The notes beneath the pieces were generated by a model that was not told where the DNA came from, did not search any database, and saw only the letters and a program-made list of their open reading frames with translations. DNA of 64,000 nt from Patescibacteria group bacterium (GTDB lineage Bacteria > Patescibacteriota > Patescibacteriia > UBA10025 > JAHIVO01): NCBI GenBank assembly GCA_043808365.1, contig JAZDEZ010000021.1, positions 403 through 64,402 of the forward strand, read 5' to 3'. Positions 2,021 through 43,123 of the stretch are shown one piece after another. The translations under genes and the position numbers were made by a program. How positions within the stretch are numbered: position 1 is the stretch's first letter; each line of letters opens with the position of its first letter.

Positions 2021-3097
2021 ATGAGTACATTAATGATTCTGCTGTTAGCCGTGGCTGGAATGGGGATAGTGCATTATTTCCAGTCATGCCGTCCAGACAT
2101 CGGCAAGAAAAACACTGCCGATTTTCTCAAGAGAGACAGGGAAAACAAGACTAAGGGGAATGAGGAGGATGTCCCCAAGAAACTGTGCGACACTGTAGAT
2201 AGCGTCATGCCATCATGCGAATATTCGGATACCGTAGTCACCAAACTGATAGTCGGCTTATTCCAGCTCATACTCATCCCACTACGACTGATCAACAATG
2301 CTTTCGTGTTGTTCATTGGCTTTTTACTGACTGCCATCGACGAAGCAAAACGTGCAATCCATGAACGATTCAAGAAACAGAATACCGCTAATGGTGAATA
2401 TTCACGCGGCCTCATGATTTCGTTCATTGCCCTGATTGCTCTGGTCGTATTAACCATGGCCAATTACCAGATCCTAAAAATAGGATTGCCGATCATCTGG
2501 CCAGTGGACAAAAGACCAATCATGAACATCTTCGGCATGGATGTATATGTTGTCAACCTGCTGGCCATCCTTATGATCGTTGCGGAATTCACCGCCAGCC
2601 TGCTGGCGTACGAATATCGTAGTTCAAAGGGTCTCATTGTAAAAAAAAGCAAGAGTACATCTGCCGTCATGTACCTCATCCTTATCATTTTATGTGCGGC
2701 TGAGGCCTTATTGGCAGTTTACCGTACTCAATACCAAACGAACTACAATAATAGCCTGCCGCTGTATGCCATTGGCTTCATCTCCTTCATCGTGCCGCTC
2801 CTCGCCGCCTTTTGCTTCGAGAAAATTAGCATGTACTTGGTCTGGATGCTGGCTGGTATCATGCTGATTGTCGTCGGTATCCTCTGGCTGCCGTTCCTAA
2901 TTGCCGAAATAATTGTCTCCTGGCTGCTATCACTGGCCCTCTACCTTTTGGAGGCCATATCAGCGCCTTTCCGCATGGCACACAAGGCGACTATAGACAT
3001 CCATGAATGGTCAACCGATGATGACGAATGCCAGGAAACGGAACCGAAACTGCTTAAACAAAAGATAAACGCACTCCAAACCAATGAAGGACGGTGA
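2021..3097 (+). CDS. Polytopic membrane protein of unknown function (about 7 predicted TM segments)
   Basis: 358-aa ORF. AGGAGG lies 10 nt upstream of the ATG. There are multiple long hydrophobic stretches and a charged N-proximal loop. No recognisable catalytic motif. Confidence 0.6.
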   Translation: MSTLMILLLAVAGMGIVHYFQSCRPDIGKKNTADFLKRDRENKTKGNEEDVPKKLCDTVDSVMPSCEYSDTVVTKLIVGLFQLILIPLRLINNAFVLFIGFLLTAIDEAKRAIHERFKKQNTANGEYSRGLMISFIALIALVVLTMANYQILKIGLPIIWPVDKRPIMNIFGMDVYVVNLLAILMIVAEFTASLLAYEYRSSKGLIVKKSKSTSAVMYLILIILCAAEALLAVYRTQYQTNYNNSLPLYAIGFISFIVPLLAAFCFEKISMYLVWMLAGIMLIVVGILWLPFLIAEIIVSWLLSLALYLLEAISAPFRMAHKATIDIHEWSTDDDECQETEPKLLKQKINALQTNEGR

Positions 3098-3102
3098 TCA
3101 CC

Positions 3103-3810
3103 ATGAAACGCCTACTGATCCTACTACTGCTTGGCTGCATAGTGATGGTTCTGGCGTCATGTTCAGAGCCCGTTCACCAGCAGCCAAAGTTCGTCATTGC
3201 CATTTTTGACGAACCGTCATCTATGAACGAACAGGCGCTGGAACAGGGGAAAGTGTTCATCGACAGCCGGATCGTCCCGTTGTTGGAGGGCGGCGACAAA
3301 TTCGGCATCATTTCTATCAGCGGCAACTCCTTTACCTGCCCGGACACTGGCCAACTATTCACGCTTGTATCGTCGCCAATAACCTGCGACAGGGAAATGG
3401 ACTCGATCAACTCCATAACGTTAAATCAGATCCATCGCCTGATCAGTGAAGTGCGCATCCGGCCAGAATTCACTGCCAGTGACATTCTAGGCGCCCTGGC
3501 CAGGGCCAGCACCTTCTTCGTCGAGGATACTCTGTCCGAAAAAATCCTGATCATCATCAGCGATATGGAAGAAAACGTCTGGCGACCGGGGATCACCGAC
3601 CTGATCAAGCTCAACGGCGTCCGCGTCTATGCCCTTTTCATCAGCCACAAGTTCAAAAACATCAAGGATGATGTCCAGGCATATACGGCCAAGAAACAGT
3701 ACTGGGAAAACCTCCTGCATTCTACCGGCACGGCCAATTCGTTCCTCTGGGACGACGACATCTCCCGCCTGAAAATGGATTGGTTAGTTGAGCAACTTGA
3801 GCAAAACTAA
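3103..3810 (+). CDS. Lipoprotein with a vWA-like domain
   Basis: The signal peptide ends in the lipobox LASC. FDEPSSM and ILIIISDMEEN resemble vWA/MIDAS-type strands. The gene is coupled to the upstream gene (its TGA stop lies at 3095-3097). The ATG at 3103 is preferred over the GTG at 3094. Confidence 0.5.
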   Translation: MKRLLILLLLGCIVMVLASCSEPVHQQPKFVIAIFDEPSSMNEQALEQGKVFIDSRIVPLLEGGDKFGIISISGNSFTCPDTGQLFTLVSSPITCDREMDSINSITLNQIHRLISEVRIRPEFTASDILGALARASTFFVEDTLSEKILIIISDMEENVWRPGITDLIKLNGVRVYALFISHKFKNIKDDVQAYTAKKQYWENLLHSTGTANSFLWDDDISRLKMDWLVEQLEQN

Positions 3811-4413: not shown

Positions 4414-7014
4414 ATGAAAACGGCAAGATTCTTTTCTACGGTATTGCTTGCGGCATTTGTGTTCGTGGGCATCATGTCGGTTCAGCTCGGATGTGATAAA
4501 CACCAAAATCCAGTCGAACCGACAAAAGCACCTGACATAATCACAATGGTTGGCGGTTCCAATGGGGATTCTGCTACTCAGACTGAAATCGGTCCTGTTG
4601 CAGCATCCCTGAACCAGACACCAGTGGTCATTGGCCCCAACGACCTCATCACGGTCACTGATTACCAGCCAACGTACACCCAAACGGTTAACCTCACTAT
4701 GCCGGATGTGGTGCACCGGGGGGTCATTAACCGTACTGGCATAAAAGATGTGGTTGTACATGAGTTAAGCCGTGTTACTGGAAATCTTGTAACAATCAAT
4801 GAAATTGTCCAGTACCAGCCGCTAACAAACACCATAAAAGGTGTGAGTATCTATGCCAAGTATGGCGCGACGGGACTTGATATCCTAAACTCCATTGATA
4901 CGTACATGAATGGTCAGGAATGGGAATACTATGCGATAACAAAGAGCACCAAGACTGACTACTTCCTGTTACCCAAGAAAGCAGTGGCTATCCCGCCAGT
5001 CTTCGGACCTGGTAATATCGCCAATCTTTTGCCGAAATACCAGGAATTACCCAGTCCGATAACAGTACCCCAAATTGCTGGCAAAATAAAGGAAGTCATC
5101 CTCACTACTTCAAAGGGGTTATGCATTGCAATTGATGTTGGCATAGTCTTGAGTTTAGTGTCCGGGCCAGAAATAGTTGGTGTCGGTGCATTCGCGTGTG
5201 CGCTCGTTGCCACGGACGACTTGGCCCAGCAAGTTGTCGACATGATTAAGCAAAGTTCGAATGTCCGAGTGTACTTCAAACGAATTGAGTATGACGGGAC
5301 AACTGATCCACTCATTCTACTTATTTCCACGCCTATACCGAATCCGCAGCCGATTTTCCAGCTTGATATCTTACCGAATACTCAGGTTGAACTCATGCAA
5401 GGTGAAACGAAGCAATTCAACGCTTACCCACGTGATGCATCCGGGAACATTGTCGGTGCTCCCGTGAGTTGGTCAACAACCTTCGGCACTATTGATGCAA
5501 ATGGTTTGTATTCTGCTACTACGGTTGGTCAAGGGACCGTTACGGCAAGTTTAGGCAGTGCATGGCCTAACGTACCACCTGCTACTGTCAAAGTGGTCGT
5601 AACAGCCGTCATCGCCAACCGCCCGCCCATCGTCAGTGTGCCGGCTTCAGCCAGTGCGACCATTAACATGCCGATCACTATCAATATCACTAAGAGTGAT
5701 CCGGATGGAAATGCGGTACAGATTGCCGTTGACCCTGGAAACCAGACAGTTGAATGGGTACAGGGCACCAGCTACACTCACACATTTAACGTAGTGGGCG
5801 TCTATAATGTCCGTTTCACTGGGTATGATGGCAAGGCATGGTCGCCGACCGCCATCTGTGTCGTGACGGTAGCCGGTCCGGCTAATCGCCCGCCTGTGGT
5901 GAGCGTTCCTCCGACGGTTAATGCGACCATTAACGTGCCGGTCACCATCAATATCATTAAGAGTGATCCGGATGGAAATGTGGTACAGATTGCCGTTGAC
6001 CCTGGAGACCAGACAGGAATCGAGTGGGTGCAGGGCAATAGCTACATCCACACGTTTAAGGCCGCTGGCATGTATAATGTTCGCTTCACCGGGCACGACG
6101 GCAAGGCATGGAGCCCGACCGCCATCTGTGTTGTGACGGTAGCCGGTCCGGCTAATACTGCGCCGACAGCCTGCATGTCGGTTTCACCACAAAACGGCAG
6201 CGGCACAACTGCGTCAGTCTTCACCTTCACCTCATGCTCAACGGATCCCGAAACCCCGGTTGACGCCCTGCAGGTCCGCTGGCAAATCGACGGAGTCTGG
6301 ACAGCCTGGACCACGTTGAAAACGCAAACAAAACAGTGGACTACGGTTGGACAGAAGACGGTCGTTCTTGAAGTGAGGGACGCTGGTGGGTTGACAGCAC
6401 AGGCAACTAAAACGGTTATTGTGAACCCGCCGCTGAACAATCCGCCGACTGTAAGTGTCGCCAGCACGACTACGGGGCAGGTTGGTGCAACAACCGTAAT
6501 ACCGTATACGGCAAGCGATCGGGAAACACCTTCAGCTAATCTCTGTGTGGCGGTAGACTGGCTCGATGGATCAGCGGCCGTATACTTCTGGGGTGGAGCA
6601 CCAGCGACATACATCTTCAAATCGGCCGGCACGTATGATGTGCGATTCACAGCATGGGACGGGACTGACTGGTCGCCGACGGCGATTTGCAGAGTGACTG
6701 TCACCAGCGGGTGCTCCAACATGCCAACGCTCCTCGGGCCGATCAACGGGCAAACGGTCAGCTTGAGCGCAGGTTTCTCGTTCTACTGGACGAAGGTCTG
6801 CGACGGATTCGGCGAATACAACCTATACGTGATGACTGCGCCGAATTCAACCGGCAAAACTGTCTTCGCGGAAAGAATGACCCCGACTTATACGTCGCTC
6901 GGTTACTGGGGATCCGGCCTGCTGCCCAATACGACGTACTATTGGTGCCTGCAAATGGGCAACTTTGTAGGTGCGCCGCTGACACCGTTTGCCTCGTTTA
7001 GAACGGCGCCATAG
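4414..7014 (+). CDS. Large secreted/surface protein with Big_2-like, PKD/Ig-like repeat and FN3-like domains
   Basis: N-terminal signal peptide. VELMQGETKQFNAYPRD..GTVTASLG resembles a bacterial Ig-like (Big_2) domain. Two near-identical ~90-aa repeats and two further diverged copies are present. The C-terminus has a YYW-containing beta-sandwich-like segment. AGGAG lies 8 nt upstream of the ATG. Confidence 0.75.
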   Translation: MKTARFFSTVLLAAFVFVGIMSVQLGCDKHQNPVEPTKAPDIITMVGGSNGDSATQTEIGPVAASLNQTPVVIGPNDLITVTDYQPTYTQTVNLTMPDVVHRGVINRTGIKDVVVHELSRVTGNLVTINEIVQYQPLTNTIKGVSIYAKYGATGLDILNSIDTYMNGQEWEYYAITKSTKTDYFLLPKKAVAIPPVFGPGNIANLLPKYQELPSPITVPQIAGKIKEVILTTSKGLCIAIDVGIVLSLVSGPEIVGVGAFACALVATDDLAQQVVDMIKQSSNVRVYFKRIEYDGTTDPLILLISTPIPNPQPIFQLDILPNTQVELMQGETKQFNAYPRDASGNIVGAPVSWSTTFGTIDANGLYSATTVGQGTVTASLGSAWPNVPPATVKVVVTAVIANRPPIVSVPASASATINMPITINITKSDPDGNAVQIAVDPGNQTVEWVQGTSYTHTFNVVGVYNVRFTGYDGKAWSPTAICVVTVAGPANRPPVVSVPPTVNATINVPVTINIIKSDPDGNVVQIAVDPGDQTGIEWVQGNSYIHTFKAAGMYNVRFTGHDGKAWSPTAICVVTVAGPANTAPTACMSVSPQNGSGTTASVFTFTSCSTDPETPVDALQVRWQIDGVWTAWTTLKTQTKQWTTVGQKTVVLEVRDAGGLTAQATKTVIVNPPLNNPPTVSVASTTTGQVGATTVIPYTASDRETPSANLCVAVDWLDGSAAVYFWGGAPATYIFKSAGTYDVRFTAWDGTDWSPTAICRVTVTSGCSNMPTLLGPINGQTVSLSAGFSFYWTKVCDGFGEYNLYVMTAPNSTGKTVFAERMTPTYTSLGYWGSGLLPNTTYYWCLQMGNFVGAPLTPFASFRTAP
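5611..6150 (+). repeat. Tandem ~270-bp in-frame repeat (2 units) inside the surface protein gene
   Basis: Unit 1 starts at gccaaccgcccgcccatcgtc (5611) and unit 2 at gctaatcgcccgcctgtggtg (5881). Both end with ..gtgacggtagccggtccg. Long identical runs include agagtgatccggatggaaatg and gtacagattgccgttgaccctgga. Confidence 0.9.
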
Positions 7015-7036
7015 TATGTTTCTTGTTCTTTCTCAC

Positions 7037-7066
7037 GGCAGAAGCCTCTACTTCTGCCGTTTTTTT
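7037..7066 (+). terminator. Rho-independent terminator of the surface protein gene
   Basis: Stem GGCAGAAG / CTTCTGCC followed by GTTTTTTT. Confidence 0.8.
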
Positions 7067-7459
7067 ACAAAAAACGCCCTGGCAGAATGTCCAAGCCAGG
7101 GCGGTGAAGTTACACAAATAATCATATAGACGATTCGTCCAGCCAGACCCGAAAGCGACAGAAAATTCTGTCGGAACGAGGAATTCGCCACTGTTCACCT
7201 CTTCCCTTGACCGCGGTGAAAGGATGCACGCGGTTTGACCAAGCTACTCCGGTGATCATTCTCTCGCCCCGTATGCCTAACAGGGCCGTCTTCGAACCGT
7301 TGGGTTCGGTTCGCAGAGATAGTCTGTTTGACGTGGCGCCAGCGCCATCACTCCGTGATAGCCGCTGACCTTTGCTGGAGCGGACTCAGGACTCGCCCAA
7401 TTCTTTCAATTCGCATTCCTCTCATGCGAGGAACTTCGACTCTCCATATGATTATTGTG
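7067..7459 (-). ncRNA. rnpB: Independent structured ncRNA gene; candidate RNase P RNA (type A-like)
   Basis: - A 347-nt core (7113-7459) is closed by a ~15-bp terminal helix (CACAAATAATCATAT / ATATGATTATTGTG) and contains many internal hairpins.
- A minus-strand promoter-like TTGACG-N17-TACGCT lies at 7507-7479.
- A minus-strand terminator (CGCCCTGGC / GCCAGGGCG plus T-run) lies at 7103-7067.
- The minus-strand RNA contains, in the canonical order, AGUCCGCUCCA (cf. AGUCCGGGCUCCA), CAAACAGA, CAAGGGAAGAGGUG and CGACAGAA..CGCUUUCGGGUC (cf. CGACAGAA..GGCUUAUCGGUC). Confidence 0.5.
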
Positions 7460-7532
7460 TAAAAGAGCATCTGCCATAAGCGTACGCTTAATAGTCCCGT
7501 GCGTCAAAATGTTCAGAACAAATCATTAGGGA

Positions 7533-7538
7533 TATAAT
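7533..7538 (+). promoter_or_regulatory. TATAAT -10 box 6 nt upstream of the capA-like ATG (leaderless-type start)
   Basis: gatATAATagcagtATG. There is no Shine-Dalgarno sequence and no room for a leader. Confidence 0.5.
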
Positions 7539-7544
7539 AGCAGT

Positions 7545-8657
7545 ATGGAAAATGTCGCGGACAAACTACGGCCAAAACCGCGCCGTCCCGCCCGCTGGGC
7601 GGCAATTCTCACAATAACCATTGCCTGTCTTATCGCTGGCGCAGTCTGGATATGGCAATACAACAGTTCGCGATATGACAAACAGCCTGAATTAATATTA
7701 AACGCCCAACGCGCCATATCGCCCGATGCCGCCAACAGCAACAAAAATAGCGCTACCACGACGCTGATCGCCGTCGGCGACATTATGCTGTCGCGGGATG
7801 TTGAGCAAAAAATGATCAATAAAAAAGATTGGCGGTTCCCGTTTTTAGAAACAGCCGCTCTGACCTCGGCCGGCGATATTGTTTTCGGCAACCTCGAAAC
7901 GCCCCTCATCAACGGACCGAGGGTGCTGACCGGGGAAATGTCATTCCGCGCAGACACCCGATCAGTGGCCGGCTTAACGTATGCGGGATTTAATGTCCTG
8001 TCATTGGCGAACAATCATGTGAAAAATCAGGGCGAGGCGGGCATCGCTTCAACGATCGAAACGCTTGACCAGGTAAATATTTTACACGCTGGAGCCGGAT
8101 CAAATGATGCGGCCGCGCGCGAACCGGCCATTATGGAAAAAAACGGGCTCAAGTTCGGTTTTCTGGCGTATGTGGACAGCGCGTTCACGCCCGCATCGTA
8201 TGAAGCGACGCCAATTAGGGCTGGCTCGCCTTTTTTAAATGAAGCTGCTTTAGCGGACGACCTGGCTGGACTGAAACCGCGGGCTGACGTCATTATCGTC
8301 TCAATGCACGCCGGCACTGAATACCAGGACTCGCAAAACCAAAAACAAACCAGCTTCGCCCGGCGGGCCATTGACCTGGGCGCCCAGGTGGTGATCGGCC
8401 ACCATCCGCACGTCGTCGAGCCGGTCGAACAATACCGCGACGGCTATATTATGTATTCACTCGGCAATTTCGTCTTTGACCAGATGTGGTCGGCCAAGAC
8501 CCGCGCCGGCGCCGTAGCGACAATCACCTTCACCGGAACCAAACCTTCGGATATTAAAATAACTCCCATAAAAATATTTGAGTACGCCCAGCCGAGAGTG
8601 ATCGAGGGCACGGAAGCTGAGGCAATTTTGGCCAGGATGAATAGTTTTACAAAATAG
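7545..8657 (+). CDS. CapA/PGA-biosynthesis family metallophosphoesterase-like protein with an N-terminal membrane anchor
   Basis: Motifs seen: IAVGDIML, FGNLETPL, LSLANNH, VSMHAGTEY, VIGHHPHV, YSLGNFVFDQ. Confidence 0.8.
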   Translation: MENVADKLRPKPRRPARWAAILTITIACLIAGAVWIWQYNSSRYDKQPELILNAQRAISPDAANSNKNSATTTLIAVGDIMLSRDVEQKMINKKDWRFPFLETAALTSAGDIVFGNLETPLINGPRVLTGEMSFRADTRSVAGLTYAGFNVLSLANNHVKNQGEAGIASTIETLDQVNILHAGAGSNDAAAREPAIMEKNGLKFGFLAYVDSAFTPASYEATPIRAGSPFLNEAALADDLAGLKPRADVIIVSMHAGTEYQDSQNQKQTSFARRAIDLGAQVVIGHHPHVVEPVEQYRDGYIMYSLGNFVFDQMWSAKTRAGAVATITFTGTKPSDIKITPIKIFEYAQPRVIEGTEAEAILARMNSFTK

Positions 8658-38664: not shown

Positions 38665-39768
38665 CTATTGCTTAATCGGCATGATAATGTAGACATAGTC
38701 GCCGTCCTTTTCCGGCTTGATCAGGCCTGGGCTGAGGTTTGAATTTATTTCAATGACGCAGTTAGATGAGTTAAGGTTTTGCAGGCCGTCAAGCAAGAAC
38801 CGGTAATTGAACACGATATGGTTTTCATCGCCCTCGATAGTCGCTTCCTGCACCGCTTCGCTTTCGCCAACCTGGGCGTTAGTGGTATTCACCGTGATCT
38901 GTCCGGCTGATTTTTCGAACTTCAAGACAATGTCATTGCCGCCCGGCTTGCAAAACAGGCTGGCCCGTTTGACGGTATTAATAAACTCCTGGGTATCGAC
39001 GGTGATCTTCGTCCGGTACTCTTTGGGGATGATTTGCTGATAATCAGGGTATTGGCCCTCGATGACGCGCGAGGTCAGTTTGGTCTCGCCTAGGTCAAAT
39101 AATATTTGATTTTCATTGCAGACAATAGCGACGGGGTCATTATAATCACCCAAGATTCGCACTAATTCCTGGATGGTCCGGATTGGAACGATGACATTGT
39201 GCTGGCTGGCCGCCGGCTTGGATAGAGCGACTTTCTTCTCCGCCAGACGGTAGCTGTCCGTCGCCACCGCAACGAGATTGCCTCCCTCAAAATTAAAATA
39301 TACGCCGCTGATTTCCGGCCGCGTCTCGTCATACGCCACGGCAAATGCCACGTTTGACAGCGCCCGGCGCAAGGTTTCGGCGGGAATTTCAAATTTTTGC
39401 TTGGCATCAACCTCGGGAATCAAGGGGAATTCCGAAGCCTCCAGGCCCTTCATGACCGTCTTGGACTTCTTCCCCTTTATCTTCATGCTTTGGTCAACCA
39501 CCTCGATTTCAATATTTTCTTTTGGCAGTAAATTCACGTAATCACTCAGGGTCTTGGCCTGCACGGTAAAGGCCCCTTCTTTTTCCACTTTGCCGCGCAC
39601 CTGGCAAATAATGCCAATTTCAAGGTTTGTGGTGAGAAGTTTAATAACACCCTGCTCGGCGCGGATCAAAACATTGTTTAAAATCGGCAGGGTAATATTT
39701 TTGCTGGCCACATGACTGACCAAAGAAAGGCCTTTTGTTAAATTTTCCTGCGTGCATATTACTTTCAT
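38665..39768 (-). CDS. dnaN: DNA polymerase III beta sliding clamp
   Basis: 367 aa. MKVICTQENLTKGLSLVSHVAS..LPILNNVLI is a typical N-terminus. The gene lies directly downstream of dnaA. Confidence 0.9.
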   Translation of the reverse strand: MKVICTQENLTKGLSLVSHVASKNITLPILNNVLIRAEQGVIKLLTTNLEIGIICQVRGKVEKEGAFTVQAKTLSDYVNLLPKENIEIEVVDQSMKIKGKKSKTVMKGLEASEFPLIPEVDAKQKFEIPAETLRRALSNVAFAVAYDETRPEISGVYFNFEGGNLVAVATDSYRLAEKKVALSKPAASQHNVIVPIRTIQELVRILGDYNDPVAIVCNENQILFDLGETKLTSRVIEGQYPDYQQIIPKEYRTKITVDTQEFINTVKRASLFCKPGGNDIVLKFEKSAGQITVNTTNAQVGESEAVQEATIEGDENHIVFNYRFLLDGLQNLNSSNCVIEINSNLSPGLIKPEKDGDYVYIIMPIKQ

Positions 39769-40057
39769 AGTATCTTTATAAATAAATTAATAAATAATAG
39801 TAATAGGGAGGTGGATATGTGGATGAAAATATTTTTTTAAACAAACCAGCTTGCTTTGATTGGATGTTTTTTATGAAATTGTTTTTTATCGGGAGTGAAT
39901 AAGATTTGCAGTAACGGTGGGTGGGGTGTGCGTAAGACTATGTCCGGAAGCAAATGAATTTTTTACGGCTTCAGAAAAGGTTTTTATTCACAATGCGAGC
40001 GTGTGCATGTCCACATATTAGGCGGTGTTCAGAGGCCGGCTATCAACATCTTCCTCA
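39769..40057. other. Candidate oriC segment (dnaA-dnaN intergenic): AT-rich stretch plus DnaA-box-like 9-mers
   Basis: TTATTCACA at 39984-39992 fits TTATNCACA. TGTGGATGA at 39818-39826 is the reverse complement of TCATCCACA. ATGTCCACA lies at 40007-40015. An AT-rich run (tatctttataaataaattaataaataatagtaatag) lies at 39771-39806. Confidence 0.55.
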
Positions 40058-41416
40058 CTAGTTATACAGCCGCTGCCGGATTAATAAAATGTCCTGGCGG
40101 ATTTTTTCGTCTTCATCGAGCGCCCTTTTAATTTTTTCGTATGCGTGCATGGCGGTAGTATGGTCGCGTCCGCCCAATTCTTGGCCAATCGCCGGGTAAG
40201 AGGCCTTTGCTTCTTCGCGCATGAGAAACATGGAGATTTGGCGCGGCACGACAAGCTCTTTTTTGCGGCTCGCGCCCAGTAAATCGCCTGAAGAAATTTC
40301 AAAAAAACTGGCCACCACAGAAATAATTTGCTTGATGGTGATGGCGCCATCGCGTTTTTGGTAGCGAGACAGGCTGGTGATGACGTTTTTCACCGATTCG
40401 ACGGTGGGGGGCGCATGATTGAGCTGGTGATAGGCCATAATGCGGTTCAGGGCGCCCTCAAGTTCGCGGACGTTGCTCTGGACGCTGGTCGAGATGGCGG
40501 TCACGATATCGCTGGCGAGGGGGTAGTTTTTTTCCTTGCATTTGGCGTTAAGGATAGCCACGCGGGTTTCAAAGTCAGGCTGGGCGATGTCGGCAATCAT
40601 GCCCCATTCGAAGCGCGAAATAAGCCTGTTCTCCAGCGCCGGGATGGCTTTAGGCGGCCGGTCTGAGGTGATGACAATCTGATTGTTTTGCTGGTGCAGG
40701 GCGTTGAAAGTATGGAAAAATTCTTCCTGGGTACCCTCCTTGCCGGCCAGGAACTGGATGTCGTCAATCAGCAGGAGGTCGGCGTTTCGGTAATGGTCTT
40801 TGAAGCTCTCCCCGTTCCCCTGGGTGATTGCCCGGATAAATTCATTAGTGAACTTTTCGCACGTGACATAGACTATTTTCTTTTTTGGGGAATTTTTCAA
40901 AACCTCATGGGCAATAGCCTGTAAAAGATGAGTCTTCCCCAGCCCGGCCCCGCCATAAATAAAGAGCGGGTTATACACTTCTCCCGGACGCTGAGCCACG
41001 GCCAGGCAGGCGGCGTGAGCCAGTTCGCTGGATTTGCCGACAACAAAATTCTCAAACGTATATCGCGCATTGAGGCCGTAACTATTTTGCGGATCTTTCG
41101 TACGCGCGGCGGCTGGCCCGGCCATGTTCTGAGTTTGGGGGGCGGCGATTGACTGTCCGGCCCGACGAGTTGATTCAACTTTGTATGCCACTTCTTTCAC
41201 TTGGTTGCCGGTGGCGTTTTGCAGGCTTTTCAGAATTTCCTTGTGATATTTGGTTTCCAGCCAGGTTTTTGTGAAGGTATTTGGCACGCCAATAGCAACT
41301 TTTCCATCGCCGTATTGGGAGATGAAAGTGTTTTTGAACCATGTCGTGAAGTTGGCCTTGCTGATCGACAATTCTAACTCGCCGAGGGCGGCCTGCCACA
41401 GTTGCTCCTTGTCCAT
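40058..41416 (-). CDS. dnaA: Chromosomal replication initiator protein DnaA
   Basis: NPLFIYGGAGLGKTHLL (Walker A), LLIDDIQFL, and the C-terminal HTH region HTTAMHAYEKI. Confidence 0.95.
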   Translation of the reverse strand: MDKEQLWQAALGELELSISKANFTTWFKNTFISQYGDGKVAIGVPNTFTKTWLETKYHKEILKSLQNATGNQVKEVAYKVESTRRAGQSIAAPQTQNMAGPAAARTKDPQNSYGLNARYTFENFVVGKSSELAHAACLAVAQRPGEVYNPLFIYGGAGLGKTHLLQAIAHEVLKNSPKKKIVYVTCEKFTNEFIRAITQGNGESFKDHYRNADLLLIDDIQFLAGKEGTQEEFFHTFNALHQQNNQIVITSDRPPKAIPALENRLISRFEWGMIADIAQPDFETRVAILNAKCKEKNYPLASDIVTAISTSVQSNVRELEGALNRIMAYHQLNHAPPTVESVKNVITSLSRYQKRDGAITIKQIISVVASFFEISSGDLLGASRKKELVVPRQISMFLMREEAKASYPAIGQELGGRDHTTAMHAYEKIKRALDEDEKIRQDILLIRQRLYN

Positions 41417-41600
41417 ATGAGAAGGATTTTTTATGAGTAGTATTTATACTACCATACAATAGGATCCAAAAAAACGATTAAAATCGCCTCTTTTGTGCAT
41501 AAACTGTGACTAATATGAGGATAGTCATTTTTAATTGACCAATGAGGGTTTTTCCAGTATACTTTAAAAAGATTTTTTATCAGTTGAAAAGCCAGGTATT

Positions 41601-41738
41601 ATGCCAAAACGAACATATCAACCCAAGAAACGGCAGCGTGCAAAGGAGCATGGTTTCCGCAAACGGATGAAAACCAGGAATGGCCGAAAAGTGCTGGCTC
41701 GCCGCCGTAAAAAGGGCCGTCATGTACTCAGTTATTAA
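41601..41738 (+). CDS. rpmH: 50S ribosomal protein L34 (not in the ORF track)
   Basis: Translation is [45 protein letters not shown]. It lies upstream of rnpA as usual. Confidence 0.95.
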
Positions 41739-41751
41739 TTTCTAGGACGCC

Positions 41752-42096
41752 ATGCTGTCGGCGAAACATCGGGTCGTTACTGACCGGGATTGGCACAACC
41801 TTCATCGGCGCGGCCTAACCTATCATGAGGCCGACGCTGTGTTAAAAATACTCCCCCAGCAAAGGCCAGTTACGCGGTTTGGTTTCAGCATCGGCTTGAA
41901 AGTCCACAAAAAATCCACGCAGCGCAACCTCCTTAAGCGCCGACTCAGAGCCATTGCCGCGTCCCTGCTCCCCAAAATGAAGCCGGGCTACGACATCGCG
42001 ATAATTGCGAAACCACCATTGAAGGACCTGACGTTTTTAGACTTAAGAGCACATATTATTAGCTTGTTTATTCGGGCAAAACTACTACAAAAATGA
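41752..42096 (+). CDS. rnpA: Ribonuclease P protein component
   Basis: 114 aa and basic. [24 protein letters not shown] contains the RNR-like motif. Position is conserved after rpmH. Confidence 0.85.
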
Positions 42097-42353
42097 ATCT
42101 TCCGCGATATTTTGCAAAAATTATTTTAGGGCTGATTAGGGCTTACCAACGAACCCTGTCCCCGGACCATGGGCTGTTGGCGTATCGGCACCCTTATGGG
42201 TACTGCCGTTATCACCCGACCTGCTCTGAATACGGATACCGCGCTATTGAGAAGCACGGCGTACTGAAAGGCGGATTTTTAACCATTAAACGGATCGGCC
42301 GCTGCCATCCCTGGTCCCGCGGCGGCTATGACCCAGTCCCTAAAAACATATGA
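42093..42353 (+). CDS. yidD: Membrane protein insertion efficiency factor YidD
   Basis: [32 protein letters not shown]...RI.RCHPW signature. Confidence 0.9.
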
Positions 42354-43123
42354 TCGGCGACATATTTAATGTAGCGCTATTTCAGCCGTTATTGAACGCG
42401 CTTGTTTTGATTTACAAGTACATCCCTGATCTGGGGGTAGCGATTATTTTGCTGACATTAGTGATAAAATTGATACTGTATATCCCTTCACGATCCTCTA
42501 TCCGGTCGCAAAAAATCCTCCAGGATACCCAGCCGAAACTCCAGGCCATACAAAAACAATACAAGGATAACAAAGAGGAGCTTGGCCGTCAGCTGATGAG
42601 GTTTTATAAGGAAAATAAAGTAAACCCATTCTCATCCTGTCTCCCCCTCTTGATCCAGCTGCCCATCTTGATCGCCTTGTACCGGGCGTTTTTAGCCGTA
42701 GCGCAAACCGACCCATCTACCCACATTTTGCTGGCAGACCAGCTCAAGCACCTGTATGAACCGTTACGCGCGATATTCTCTGCGCACTCGATCAGTCCGA
42801 TGTTTTTGGGGTTCGTTGACCTGGCAAAAAAGGGGAATTACATTTTAGCCATCCTAGCCGGCGCGGCGCAATTTTGGCAGACCAAGATGCTGATGGCCAA
42901 GCAGCCGCCCAAAGTGCCCGGTGCCAAGGATGAGGGCATGATGGCGGGCATGAACAAGCAGATGATGTATTTCATGCCTGTCCTGACGGTCATTTTCGGC
43001 CTTCAGTTTCCGGCCGGCCTGACCCTTTATTGGCTTTTCTCCACGCTCTTTACCGTGGCGCAGCAGTATTATATATTCAAACGGGATAAGGTCGTAAACA
43101 ATACCCTAGTCGTCAAACAATGA
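42350..43123 (+). CDS. yidC: Membrane protein insertase YidC (short form)
   Basis: [49 protein letters not shown] is the family core. Confidence 0.9.

Follow-up and report, generated by a model that had tools for sequence, protein, structure and literature searches.

The question raised by this locus is what occupies a 530-bp gap between two genes, one encoding a PKD-domain protein and the other a CapA-family protein, in a genome of Patescibacteria, also known as the Candidate Phyla Radiation (CPR). The window analysed here is a stretch of 64,000 nucleotides of contig JAZDEZ010000021.1; it is the only part of the metagenome-assembled genome that was covered, and window-level searches refer to these 64 kb. 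The sequence-only reading of the window had placed a self-contained non-coding RNA gene on the minus strand of the gap. It had considered this gene a probable RNase P RNA and, alternatively, a novel structured RNA of about 350 nt or a miniature inverted-repeat transposable element (MITE). The gene itself is borne out by its promoter, a core of 349 nt with a closing stem, a terminator and homologues, and the fallback identity of a novel structured RNA is supported by homologues and covariation. We conclude that the gap very probably holds a genuine structured RNA gene of an undescribed family, an estimate that refers to the gene and not to its mechanism. Judging from the compared sequences, the family appears so far in five species of Patescibacteria only.

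Transcription signals and homologues of the RNA gene

The signals that delimit the RNA gene in the window are as follows.

7502..7507, minus strand: -35 box TTGACG, read in the sequence; TTGACN in all five homologous loci
7479..7484, minus strand: -10 box TACGCT, within the palindrome AGCGTACGCT; invariant in all five loci
7069..7472, minus strand: predicted primary transcript of ~404 nt, placed by the promoter and terminator positions
7103..7109, minus strand: single-stranded 3' tail CUUCACC; (C/U)UUCACCGCCC in all five loci, including the divergent L011
7069..7102, minus strand: intrinsic terminator GCCCUGGC/GCCAGGGC, then G and U6; stem at 7102-7076

The two promoter boxes, at 7507-7502 and 7484-7479, are separated by a spacer of 17 nt, as the sequence-only reading had described, and the arrangement ATTTTGACN-N17-TACGCT is common to all five loci with exactly the same spacer length. 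The pattern TTGACN-N17-TACGCT occurs once in the window, compared with zero expected occurrences. A generic sigma-70 scan rejects this promoter because TACGCT is a weak match to TATAAT. The transcript start was set ~7 nt past the -10 box and its end at the U-tract. The GC-rich terminator hairpin and T-run noticed earlier are present, with a stem that measures 8 bp, consists of G and C and is followed by U6. A terminator stem with a U-run is found in all homologues although the stem sequence changes, and at all five loci the 3' tail runs directly into the terminator hairpin and U-run.

The unusual -10 box is overlapped by a perfect 10-bp palindrome (7478-7489), of which GCGTACGCT is kept in four homologues. 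The palindrome could be an operator site or a sign of a special promoter requirement.

Fold stability alone cannot assign the strand, since in the shuffle comparison of the window both strands are more stable than the shuffled sequences (z-scores of -3.6 and -4.1). The minus strand is indicated by the orientation of the promoter, by the U-run after the terminator, and by the consensus fold of the homologues, which has an energy of -40.0 kcal/mol on the minus strand versus -28.0 kcal/mol on the plus strand. It is also indicated by 30 G-U pairs held by the proposed helices, where the opposite strand would have A-C mismatches. No gene lies past the terminator on that strand; hence the RNA is neither a leader nor a riboswitch. 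Similarity between the homologues is spread over all six reading frames without any conserved frame, and insertions and deletions between them are not multiples of three, so the element is not protein-coding. A protein database search with the concatenated six-frame peptides of the RNA found no protein.

Homologues were sought by walking the CapA relatives and their contigs. Four were found besides the window, all in Patescibacteria, and each lies upstream of a capA gene, back-to-back with it and in divergent orientation. The locus L001 (the same as L006 and L017) is 68.7% identical to the window over 403 nt (E = 8e-25). L002 (the same as L009) and L012 (the same as L042) are further syntenic homologues, and L011 is a much more divergent syntenic one. 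The CapA proteins of the five species are only 56-70% identical. The record that contains L009/L002, CAZVMV010000002.1, is labelled as an uncultured Gammaproteobacteria bacterium; judged by gene order and by the CapA protein, which shares 63% identity with that of the window, the locus fits Patescibacteria, and the record is probably a mislabelled bin.

Every one of the five loci has the promoter with an exact 17-nt spacer, a closing stem, a domain built on a four-way junction, and the 3' tail followed by the terminator. The sequence blocks GAAGUCCUC, GAUGYGAAU, GCUCCRGCAAAGG, GCGRAUUCC and UUCNGGUCUGGCYGGAC are shared by the window, L006, L009 and L012. The L011 RNA (2620-3000, minus strand) retains the promoter, closing stem P1, four-way-junction domain and tail; unrelated hairpins stand in place of the pseudoknot domain, a sign that the family may have evolved in modules.

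The conserved fold

The proposed fold consists of a closing stem, a pseudoknot domain with neighbouring hairpins, and a central four-way-junction domain. In the window its elements are located as follows.

7443..7460, minus strand: closing stem P1, 5' strand (ACACAA + UAAUCAUAUGGA), pairing with 7112-7130
7415..7434, minus strand: hairpin Ha (GUUCCUC/GAGGAAU)
7403..7408, minus strand: pseudoknot helix h1, 5' strand (UGAAAG)
7378..7398, minus strand: hairpin Hp3 (GGGCG/CGCUC), between the 5' strands of h1 and h2
7368..7379, minus strand: long-range helix h2, 5' strand (UCCAGC-AA-AGGU), the conserved GCUCCRGCAAAGG block
7340..7367, minus strand: variable hairpin Hd; CAGCG/CGCUG in the window, CAAG/CUUG in L006, GCGGU-GCAA-ACCGC in L009
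7186..7338, minus strand: central four-way-junction domain with Hm, Hx, H4 (enclosing He and Hf) and Hk; covered by covariance models R1 and R2
7178..7185, minus strand: conserved junction AAUUCCUC, part of the GCGAAUUCC block; nearly invariant in four homologues
7156..7173, minus strand: hairpin Hh (CGACAGA/UCUGUCG)
7150..7155, minus strand: pseudoknot helix h1, 3' strand (CUUUCG)
7138..7148, minus strand: long-range helix h2, 3' strand (GUCU-G-GCUGGA), the conserved GGUCUGGCYGGA block
7112..7130, minus strand: closing stem P1, 3' strand

The helices were first found by eye from the comparison of the five sequences, and each was then checked mechanically. Complementarity of the proposed helices is kept across the homologues despite the sequence differences. 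The core of ~349 nt (7460-7112) has ends that pair over 18 bp, in line with the end pairing suggested from the window sequence: P1 is formed by 6 + 12 bp with one bulged U (7460-7443 with 7130-7112). Its sequence is wholly different in each of the five species and is always complementary to the 3' end. The 5' strand reads ACACAA.UAAUCAUAUGGA in the window, GCAUAA...UGAU in L006, GUACGUUU..UUGG in L009, UUUGUACG...GUUGAAUG in L012 and CAUU.CCAACG in L011.

The central domain is the only internal domain common to all five homologues. Helix Hm closes the four-way junction and occurs as CGCCAC/GUGGCG, GCCAG/CUGGC, CGCUGC/GCAGCG and UGCCAC/GUGGCA. The arms of the junction are Hx (GUC...GAC), H4 (UCUC/GAGA, CUCC/GGAG or CUUC/GAAG), which encloses hairpins He and Hf, and Hk (UCACC/GGUGA, GGACAC/GUGUCC or GAUUUCUC/GAGAGGUC), which contains hairpin Hg. 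In four of the five sequences Hk has an internal loop with AGUA opposite GAA, which we take to be the sequences of a sarcin-ricin/loop-E module. Among the local hairpins listed by the sequence-only reading, CGAACC/GGUUCG, ACCGCG/CGCGGU and CGACAGA/UCUGUCG are real and covarying; GGCGC/GCGCC is not retained, and CGCCAC there pairs long-range with GUGGCG.

MAFFT misplaced L011 in the central domain and shifted H4; a covariance model was therefore built from the window sequence and the proposed structure, and iterated. The first-round model R1, trained on the window sequence alone, detected in a search of 122 kb L001 (52 bits), L011 (50 bits, E = 4e-11) and L009 (16.5 bits), and nothing else. The second-round model R2 recovered L012, which was outside its training set, with 51 bits (E = 7e-10). 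Over the central domain 96.2% of cells are paired, compared with 77.8% in shuffled sequences and 38-45% in slid controls. Both sides have changed in 27 of the 39 pairs, versus 13.1 +/- 2.5 in shuffles and 2-5 in slid controls, and none of 500 shuffles equalled this count. RNAalifold applied to four sequences recovered h2, Hm, He, Hf, Hh and Ha; compensatory changes affect 10 of its 42 pairs.

The pseudoknot domain was found in four of the five species (window, L006, L009 and L012). Helix h1 is kept in exact register as AGAAGAA/UUCUUCU in L009 and GAAGAC/GUCUUC in L012, with three pairs changed on both sides. In h2, GCUCCRGC-AA-AGGY pairs with GUCU-G-GCYGGA, and CCAGC/GCUGG is changed to CCGGC/GCCGG in L009 and L012; the h2 pairing explains the strong conservation of the GCUCCRGCAAAGG and GGUCUGGCYGGA blocks. 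Since both 5' strands precede both 3' strands, h1 and h2 cross and form a pseudoknot. On the MAFFT alignment 94.7% of cells in the pseudoknot helices are paired, compared with 28-49% in slid controls. Hairpin Hp3, which is GAGCA/UGCUC in L009, competes with the longer h2 that RNAalifold extends outwards. Hairpin Hh covaries, with CAGG/CCUG, GUCUA/UAGAC and GUCC/GGAC in the homologues.

Hairpin Ha of the window has a 1-nt insertion and two G-to-A changes and is still fully paired. Its 5' strand (UUCCUC) is near-identical to the distant junction AUUCCUC (7178-7184), and GAGGAAU can pair with either one. The hairpin and the long-range GAGGAAU/AUUCCUC pairing are equally consistent with the base changes seen in the window and L012, and the two may be mutually exclusive structures.

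Three other pairings were considered and rejected. The local hairpin AAUU-GAAAG-AAUU is replaced by the covarying long-range h1, GUCC/GGAC as a mimic of the RNase P helix P4 conflicts with Ha and h2, and GAAU/AUUC is invariant and topologically awkward.

Several points weigh against the reading of this locus as a new structured RNA family. The comparison includes five distinct sequences from ~3 lineages, and many compensatory changes are shared by descent; the independent compensatory events are therefore fewer than the cell counts imply. The pairing counts of the central domain were made on an alignment fitted to the structure, and for its 3-4-bp helices (Hx, H4) conserved position is the main support. 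The pseudoknot rests on ~4 compensatory events (four pairs changed on both sides), which is moderate support. Of the 12 related CapA loci examined, 7 lack the RNA at the equivalent site; the CapA loci without it include L003-5, L010, L065, L066, L067 and L068. Such an uneven occurrence in closely related bacteria suggests that its function is accessory and not one of universal housekeeping.

Genome and metagenome scans, with patterns requiring exact 20-23-nt matches, also gave no further members. In 185,579 species genomes the exact pattern GCGAATTCC...TTCNGGTCTGGCNGGA was found at four loci, namely two known orthologues and two coding false positives. The exact pattern GGTCTGGCYGGA...TTCACCGCCC was found at 52 loci in the Joint Genome Institute (JGI) metagenomes; two of them are true and both were already known, and the others are GC-rich coding sequence, so the chance estimate for this pattern had ignored GC bias. 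The same pattern gave no true match and one false positive in viral contigs. Since the exact-pattern scans return only known orthologues, the family either is narrow or diverges too fast for 20-nt patterns.

RNase P RNA and other candidate identities

RNase P RNA has the strand order P1-P2-P3-P4...P2'-P4'-P1'. The order of the new RNA, which is P1, h1 5' strand, hairpin, h2 5' strand, large domain, h1 3' strand, h2 3' strand and P1, matches it, with h1, Hp3 and h2 in the positions of P2, P3 and P4. The ~350-nt core also fits RNase P RNA in size, and its closing stem resembles P1. In addition, the RNA shares with RNase P RNA (RF00010/RF00011) a stand-alone gene, two long-range helices that cross around a small hairpin, and a distinct junction domain of several helices that is inserted between the strands that cross. 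The genome does encode a canonical RnpA (PF00825, 68 bits, 41752-42096), as the sequence-only reading had noted at 41.7 kb, in the usual rpmH-rnpA-yidD-yidC array beside dnaA-dnaN. An RNase P RNA must therefore exist somewhere, and none was detected in the 64 kb. The RNA of the gap could be the rnpB product of this organism, highly diverged as reported for some CPR bacteria, which had been the first choice of the earlier reading; we consider this very improbable. The RNase P RNAs of 10 out of 35 complete CPR genomes were missed at default Rfam thresholds, and all of these were found by RF00010 at a lowered threshold, with many conserved features kept (Lui et al. 2021, PMC8172020). Here, neither the window nor any of three loci matched Rfam 15 at the gathering score, and at E <= 10 only terminator-type noise appeared in the window, L012 and L011. 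The bacterial type A and B (RNaseP_bact_a/b), archaeal and nuclear RNase P models did not match at this lower threshold on 380-750-nt stretches of the same three loci, where scores below ~15 bits could escape. The Rfam check proposed earlier was thus negative for RNase P, and equally for transfer-messenger RNA (tmRNA), 6S and large non-coding RNA families. Conserved regions I and V (CR-I, GNAANNUCNGNG; CR-V, ACNNNANNNNGNNUA) reportedly comprise the universally conserved RNase P nucleotides that form P4. CR-I is absent from all five sequences, and CR-V has a single pattern match (both patterns after Chen and Pace 1997), found only in the window, within the Hx hairpin, and not conserved. The window does contain the RNase P-like strings pointed out before; the homologues do not keep them, and the resemblance does not exceed chance. 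AGUCCG-CUCCA and CGACAGAA both vary, and CGACAGAA is one arm of the variable hairpin Hh rather than CR-V. Local similarity to Escherichia coli M1 RNA, for which an approximate query sequence was used, is below the shuffle mean. The 3' strands of h1 and h2 are only 2 nt apart, and in RNase P this place is taken by the A-rich joining region J2/4; J18/2 (CR-IV) is missing and no spacer precedes the h1 3' strand. The new RNA thus differs from RNase P RNA in lacking CR-I to CR-V, a P4 with a bulged U, these joining regions and any covariance-model score, and in having an extra hairpin between P1 and the first crossing helix. Topology alone is not diagnostic. L011 lacks h1, Hp3 and h2, yet keeps the promoter, P1, central domain and tail, which is incompatible with RNase P, as its catalytic core would be lost. 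Several close relatives also have this site without the RNA. When no rnpB is detectable in a CPR genome, an RNA that is long, GC-rich and closed by a stem is easily mislabelled as a diverged RNase P RNA, which is a trap for annotation.

The chance that the element is a MITE or another non-autonomous mobile element with AT-rich terminal inverted repeats, as also suggested earlier, is practically negligible. It is indeed a few hundred nucleotides long, lies in an intergenic gap and is bounded by inverted termini of 14-18 nt (7117-7130 and 7443-7456, 93% complementary), with TA beside both ends in the window. The termini, however, are entirely different in each species and still complementary, that is, they covary as an RNA helix, unlike the conserved ends bound by a transposase. 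The element also carries its own conserved promoter and terminator, and occupies the same syntenic position between capA and a convergent neighbour in five species with CapA proteins 56-70% identical. The search for extra copies proposed to decide this question gave none: the element is present once in the 64-kb window, with no further copies in ~225 kb of related loci. BLAST against phage and plasmid collections found nothing similar, and the viral contigs had no true match. Conservation of the capA adjacency in all five species, while the terminator-side gene changes, would be expected if the locus were a cis-acting or antisense regulator of the capA operon, operating via the shared divergent promoter region or by transcriptional interference, with the fold being secondary. 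The RNA and capA promoters are back-to-back within ~40 nt, and the palindrome overlaps the RNA -10 box. The RNA does not overlap the capA transcript, ~350 nt of covarying and pseudoknotted structure exceeds the needs of promoter interference, close relatives retain the capA operon without the RNA, and the adjacency can simply be inherited; taken with these facts, regulation in cis seems improbable. There is only a slight chance, smaller still than for RNase P, of another housekeeping RNA missed by Rfam in CPR bacteria (tmRNA, 6S or a large signal recognition particle (SRP) RNA) or of a small protein-coding gene. RNAs of CPR bacteria are often divergent, and short open reading frames of 40-53 aa occur in the region. 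Nevertheless, ARAGORN found no tmRNA, Rfam at E <= 10 gave no tmRNA, 6S or SRP match, and the multi-domain pseudoknotted fold resembles neither the rod of 6S-type RNAs nor the SRP hairpin. The homologues share no conserved reading frame, and the six-frame peptide search was negative for proteins. Two resemblances to known RNAs, that of CAGACUA to the group I intron R element and that of GAUUCGAC in L011 to the tmRNA 5' motif, were rejected as well: the helix order is unfit in both cases, Rfam is negative, and for tmRNA so is ARAGORN.

Proposed function and genomic setting

With the RNA regarded as a member of a new structured family, we propose from its sequence features that a molecule of ~400 nt would be transcribed from its own sigma-70-type promoter and end at its own intrinsic terminator. 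It would act in trans as a stable, compactly folded molecule, and its contact surfaces would be the invariant junction nucleotides, the AGUA/GAA loop and the conserved CUUCACC tail. CPR bacteria have tiny genomes that leave little space for sequence that is not essential, and hardly any of their RNA biology has been explored. In such genomes a pseudoknotted RNA of ~400 nt with a conserved promoter of its own likely does something specific. The adjacency to capA is probably an inherited divergent-promoter arrangement and not a functional dependence, since the capA operon also occurs in relatives that lack the RNA.

Bacterial RNAs longer than 300 nt with intricate conserved folds are few. Those that are understood are mostly ribozymes or cores of ribonucleoproteins (RNPs), such as RNase P, tmRNA, self-splicing introns and guide-RNA scaffolds; OLE, GOLLD, ROOL and raiA are still open problems. 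By analogy with these molecules, the new RNA, if functional, might be a scaffold or subunit of an RNP, to which we give somewhat less than an even chance. A catalytic RNA would be unlikely, and what remains would go to something else, such as a regulator or a sponge; an RNP scaffold is probably the likelier of the first two. Also unlikely is a new class of large functional RNA, either a ribozyme or an RNP subunit, that has the core topology of RNase P without its sequence. If true, either its fold would have evolved independently, or it would be an ancient RNase P paralogue that has diverged radically and is retained in one CPR branch.

The new RNA resembles the orphan large RNAs OLE, GOLLD, ROOL, raiA and HEARO in exceeding 300 nt, in having many covarying helices and pseudoknots, and in its narrow or patchy phylogenetic range. 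They too were found by comparing long intergenic gaps, and their gene context gave no obvious function at first description. In contrast to them, it is hosted by Patescibacteria and has five known members, it does not lie beside tRNAs, prophage genes or IscB/TnpB-type genes, and no sequence or structure match to any of the five was found in Rfam 15.

The neighbourhood of the RNA gene includes the following features.

4414-7014, plus strand: PKD-domain gene, convergent to the RNA gene
7035..7060, plus strand: terminator of the PKD-domain gene
7533..7547, plus strand: TATAAT box and ATG of capA, with the promoter back-to-back with that of the RNA
7545-8657, plus strand: CapA-family gene, divergent from the RNA gene

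The CapA-family protein has 100% identity to an NCBI protein of a Patescibacteria metagenome-assembled genome, and its relatives all come from CPR bacteria. Its promoter and that of the RNA are at most ~40 nt apart. The apparent TATAAT box of capA (7533-7538) is located only 6 nt before the ATG (7545), and L006 is alike (TATACT, 6 nt, ATG), which implies a capA mRNA with no leader or almost none. The divergent cluster has the order capA, NTP-transferase, a 465-aa protein and a type IV secretion system (T4SS) pilin. The 465-aa protein has no Pfam match in the window, and its homologue in related loci is a solute-binding protein.

The terminator-side neighbour varies: the window has the PKD protein there, L017 a 251-aa protein, and L002, L011 and L012 an acyltransferase. 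In the window and L006 lineage only, a pair of genes without a Pfam match is located between the acyltransferase and the RNA (window 2021-3810; L017 10291-12064). They encode a multi-pass membrane protein of ~355 aa (47% identity) and a protein of ~240 aa (58% identity). In the window the 866-aa PKD-domain gene is additionally inserted beside the RNA. Positions 7035-7102, between the convergent PKD-domain and RNA genes, contain two back-to-back intrinsic terminators, one per strand, that share the A/T run 7061-7075.

ARAGORN found no tRNA or tmRNA in the window, and Rfam 15 at the gathering score found no family anywhere in it. The replication-origin neighbourhood corresponds to window positions 38665-43123, with the following genes.

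38665-39768, minus strand: dnaN
40058-41416, minus strand: dnaA
41601-41738, divergent from dnaA/dnaN: rpmH
41752-42096, divergent from dnaA/dnaN: rnpA
42093-42353, divergent from dnaA/dnaN: yidD
42350-43123, divergent from dnaA/dnaN: yidC

The cumulative GC skew has its minimum near 38-40 kb of the window.

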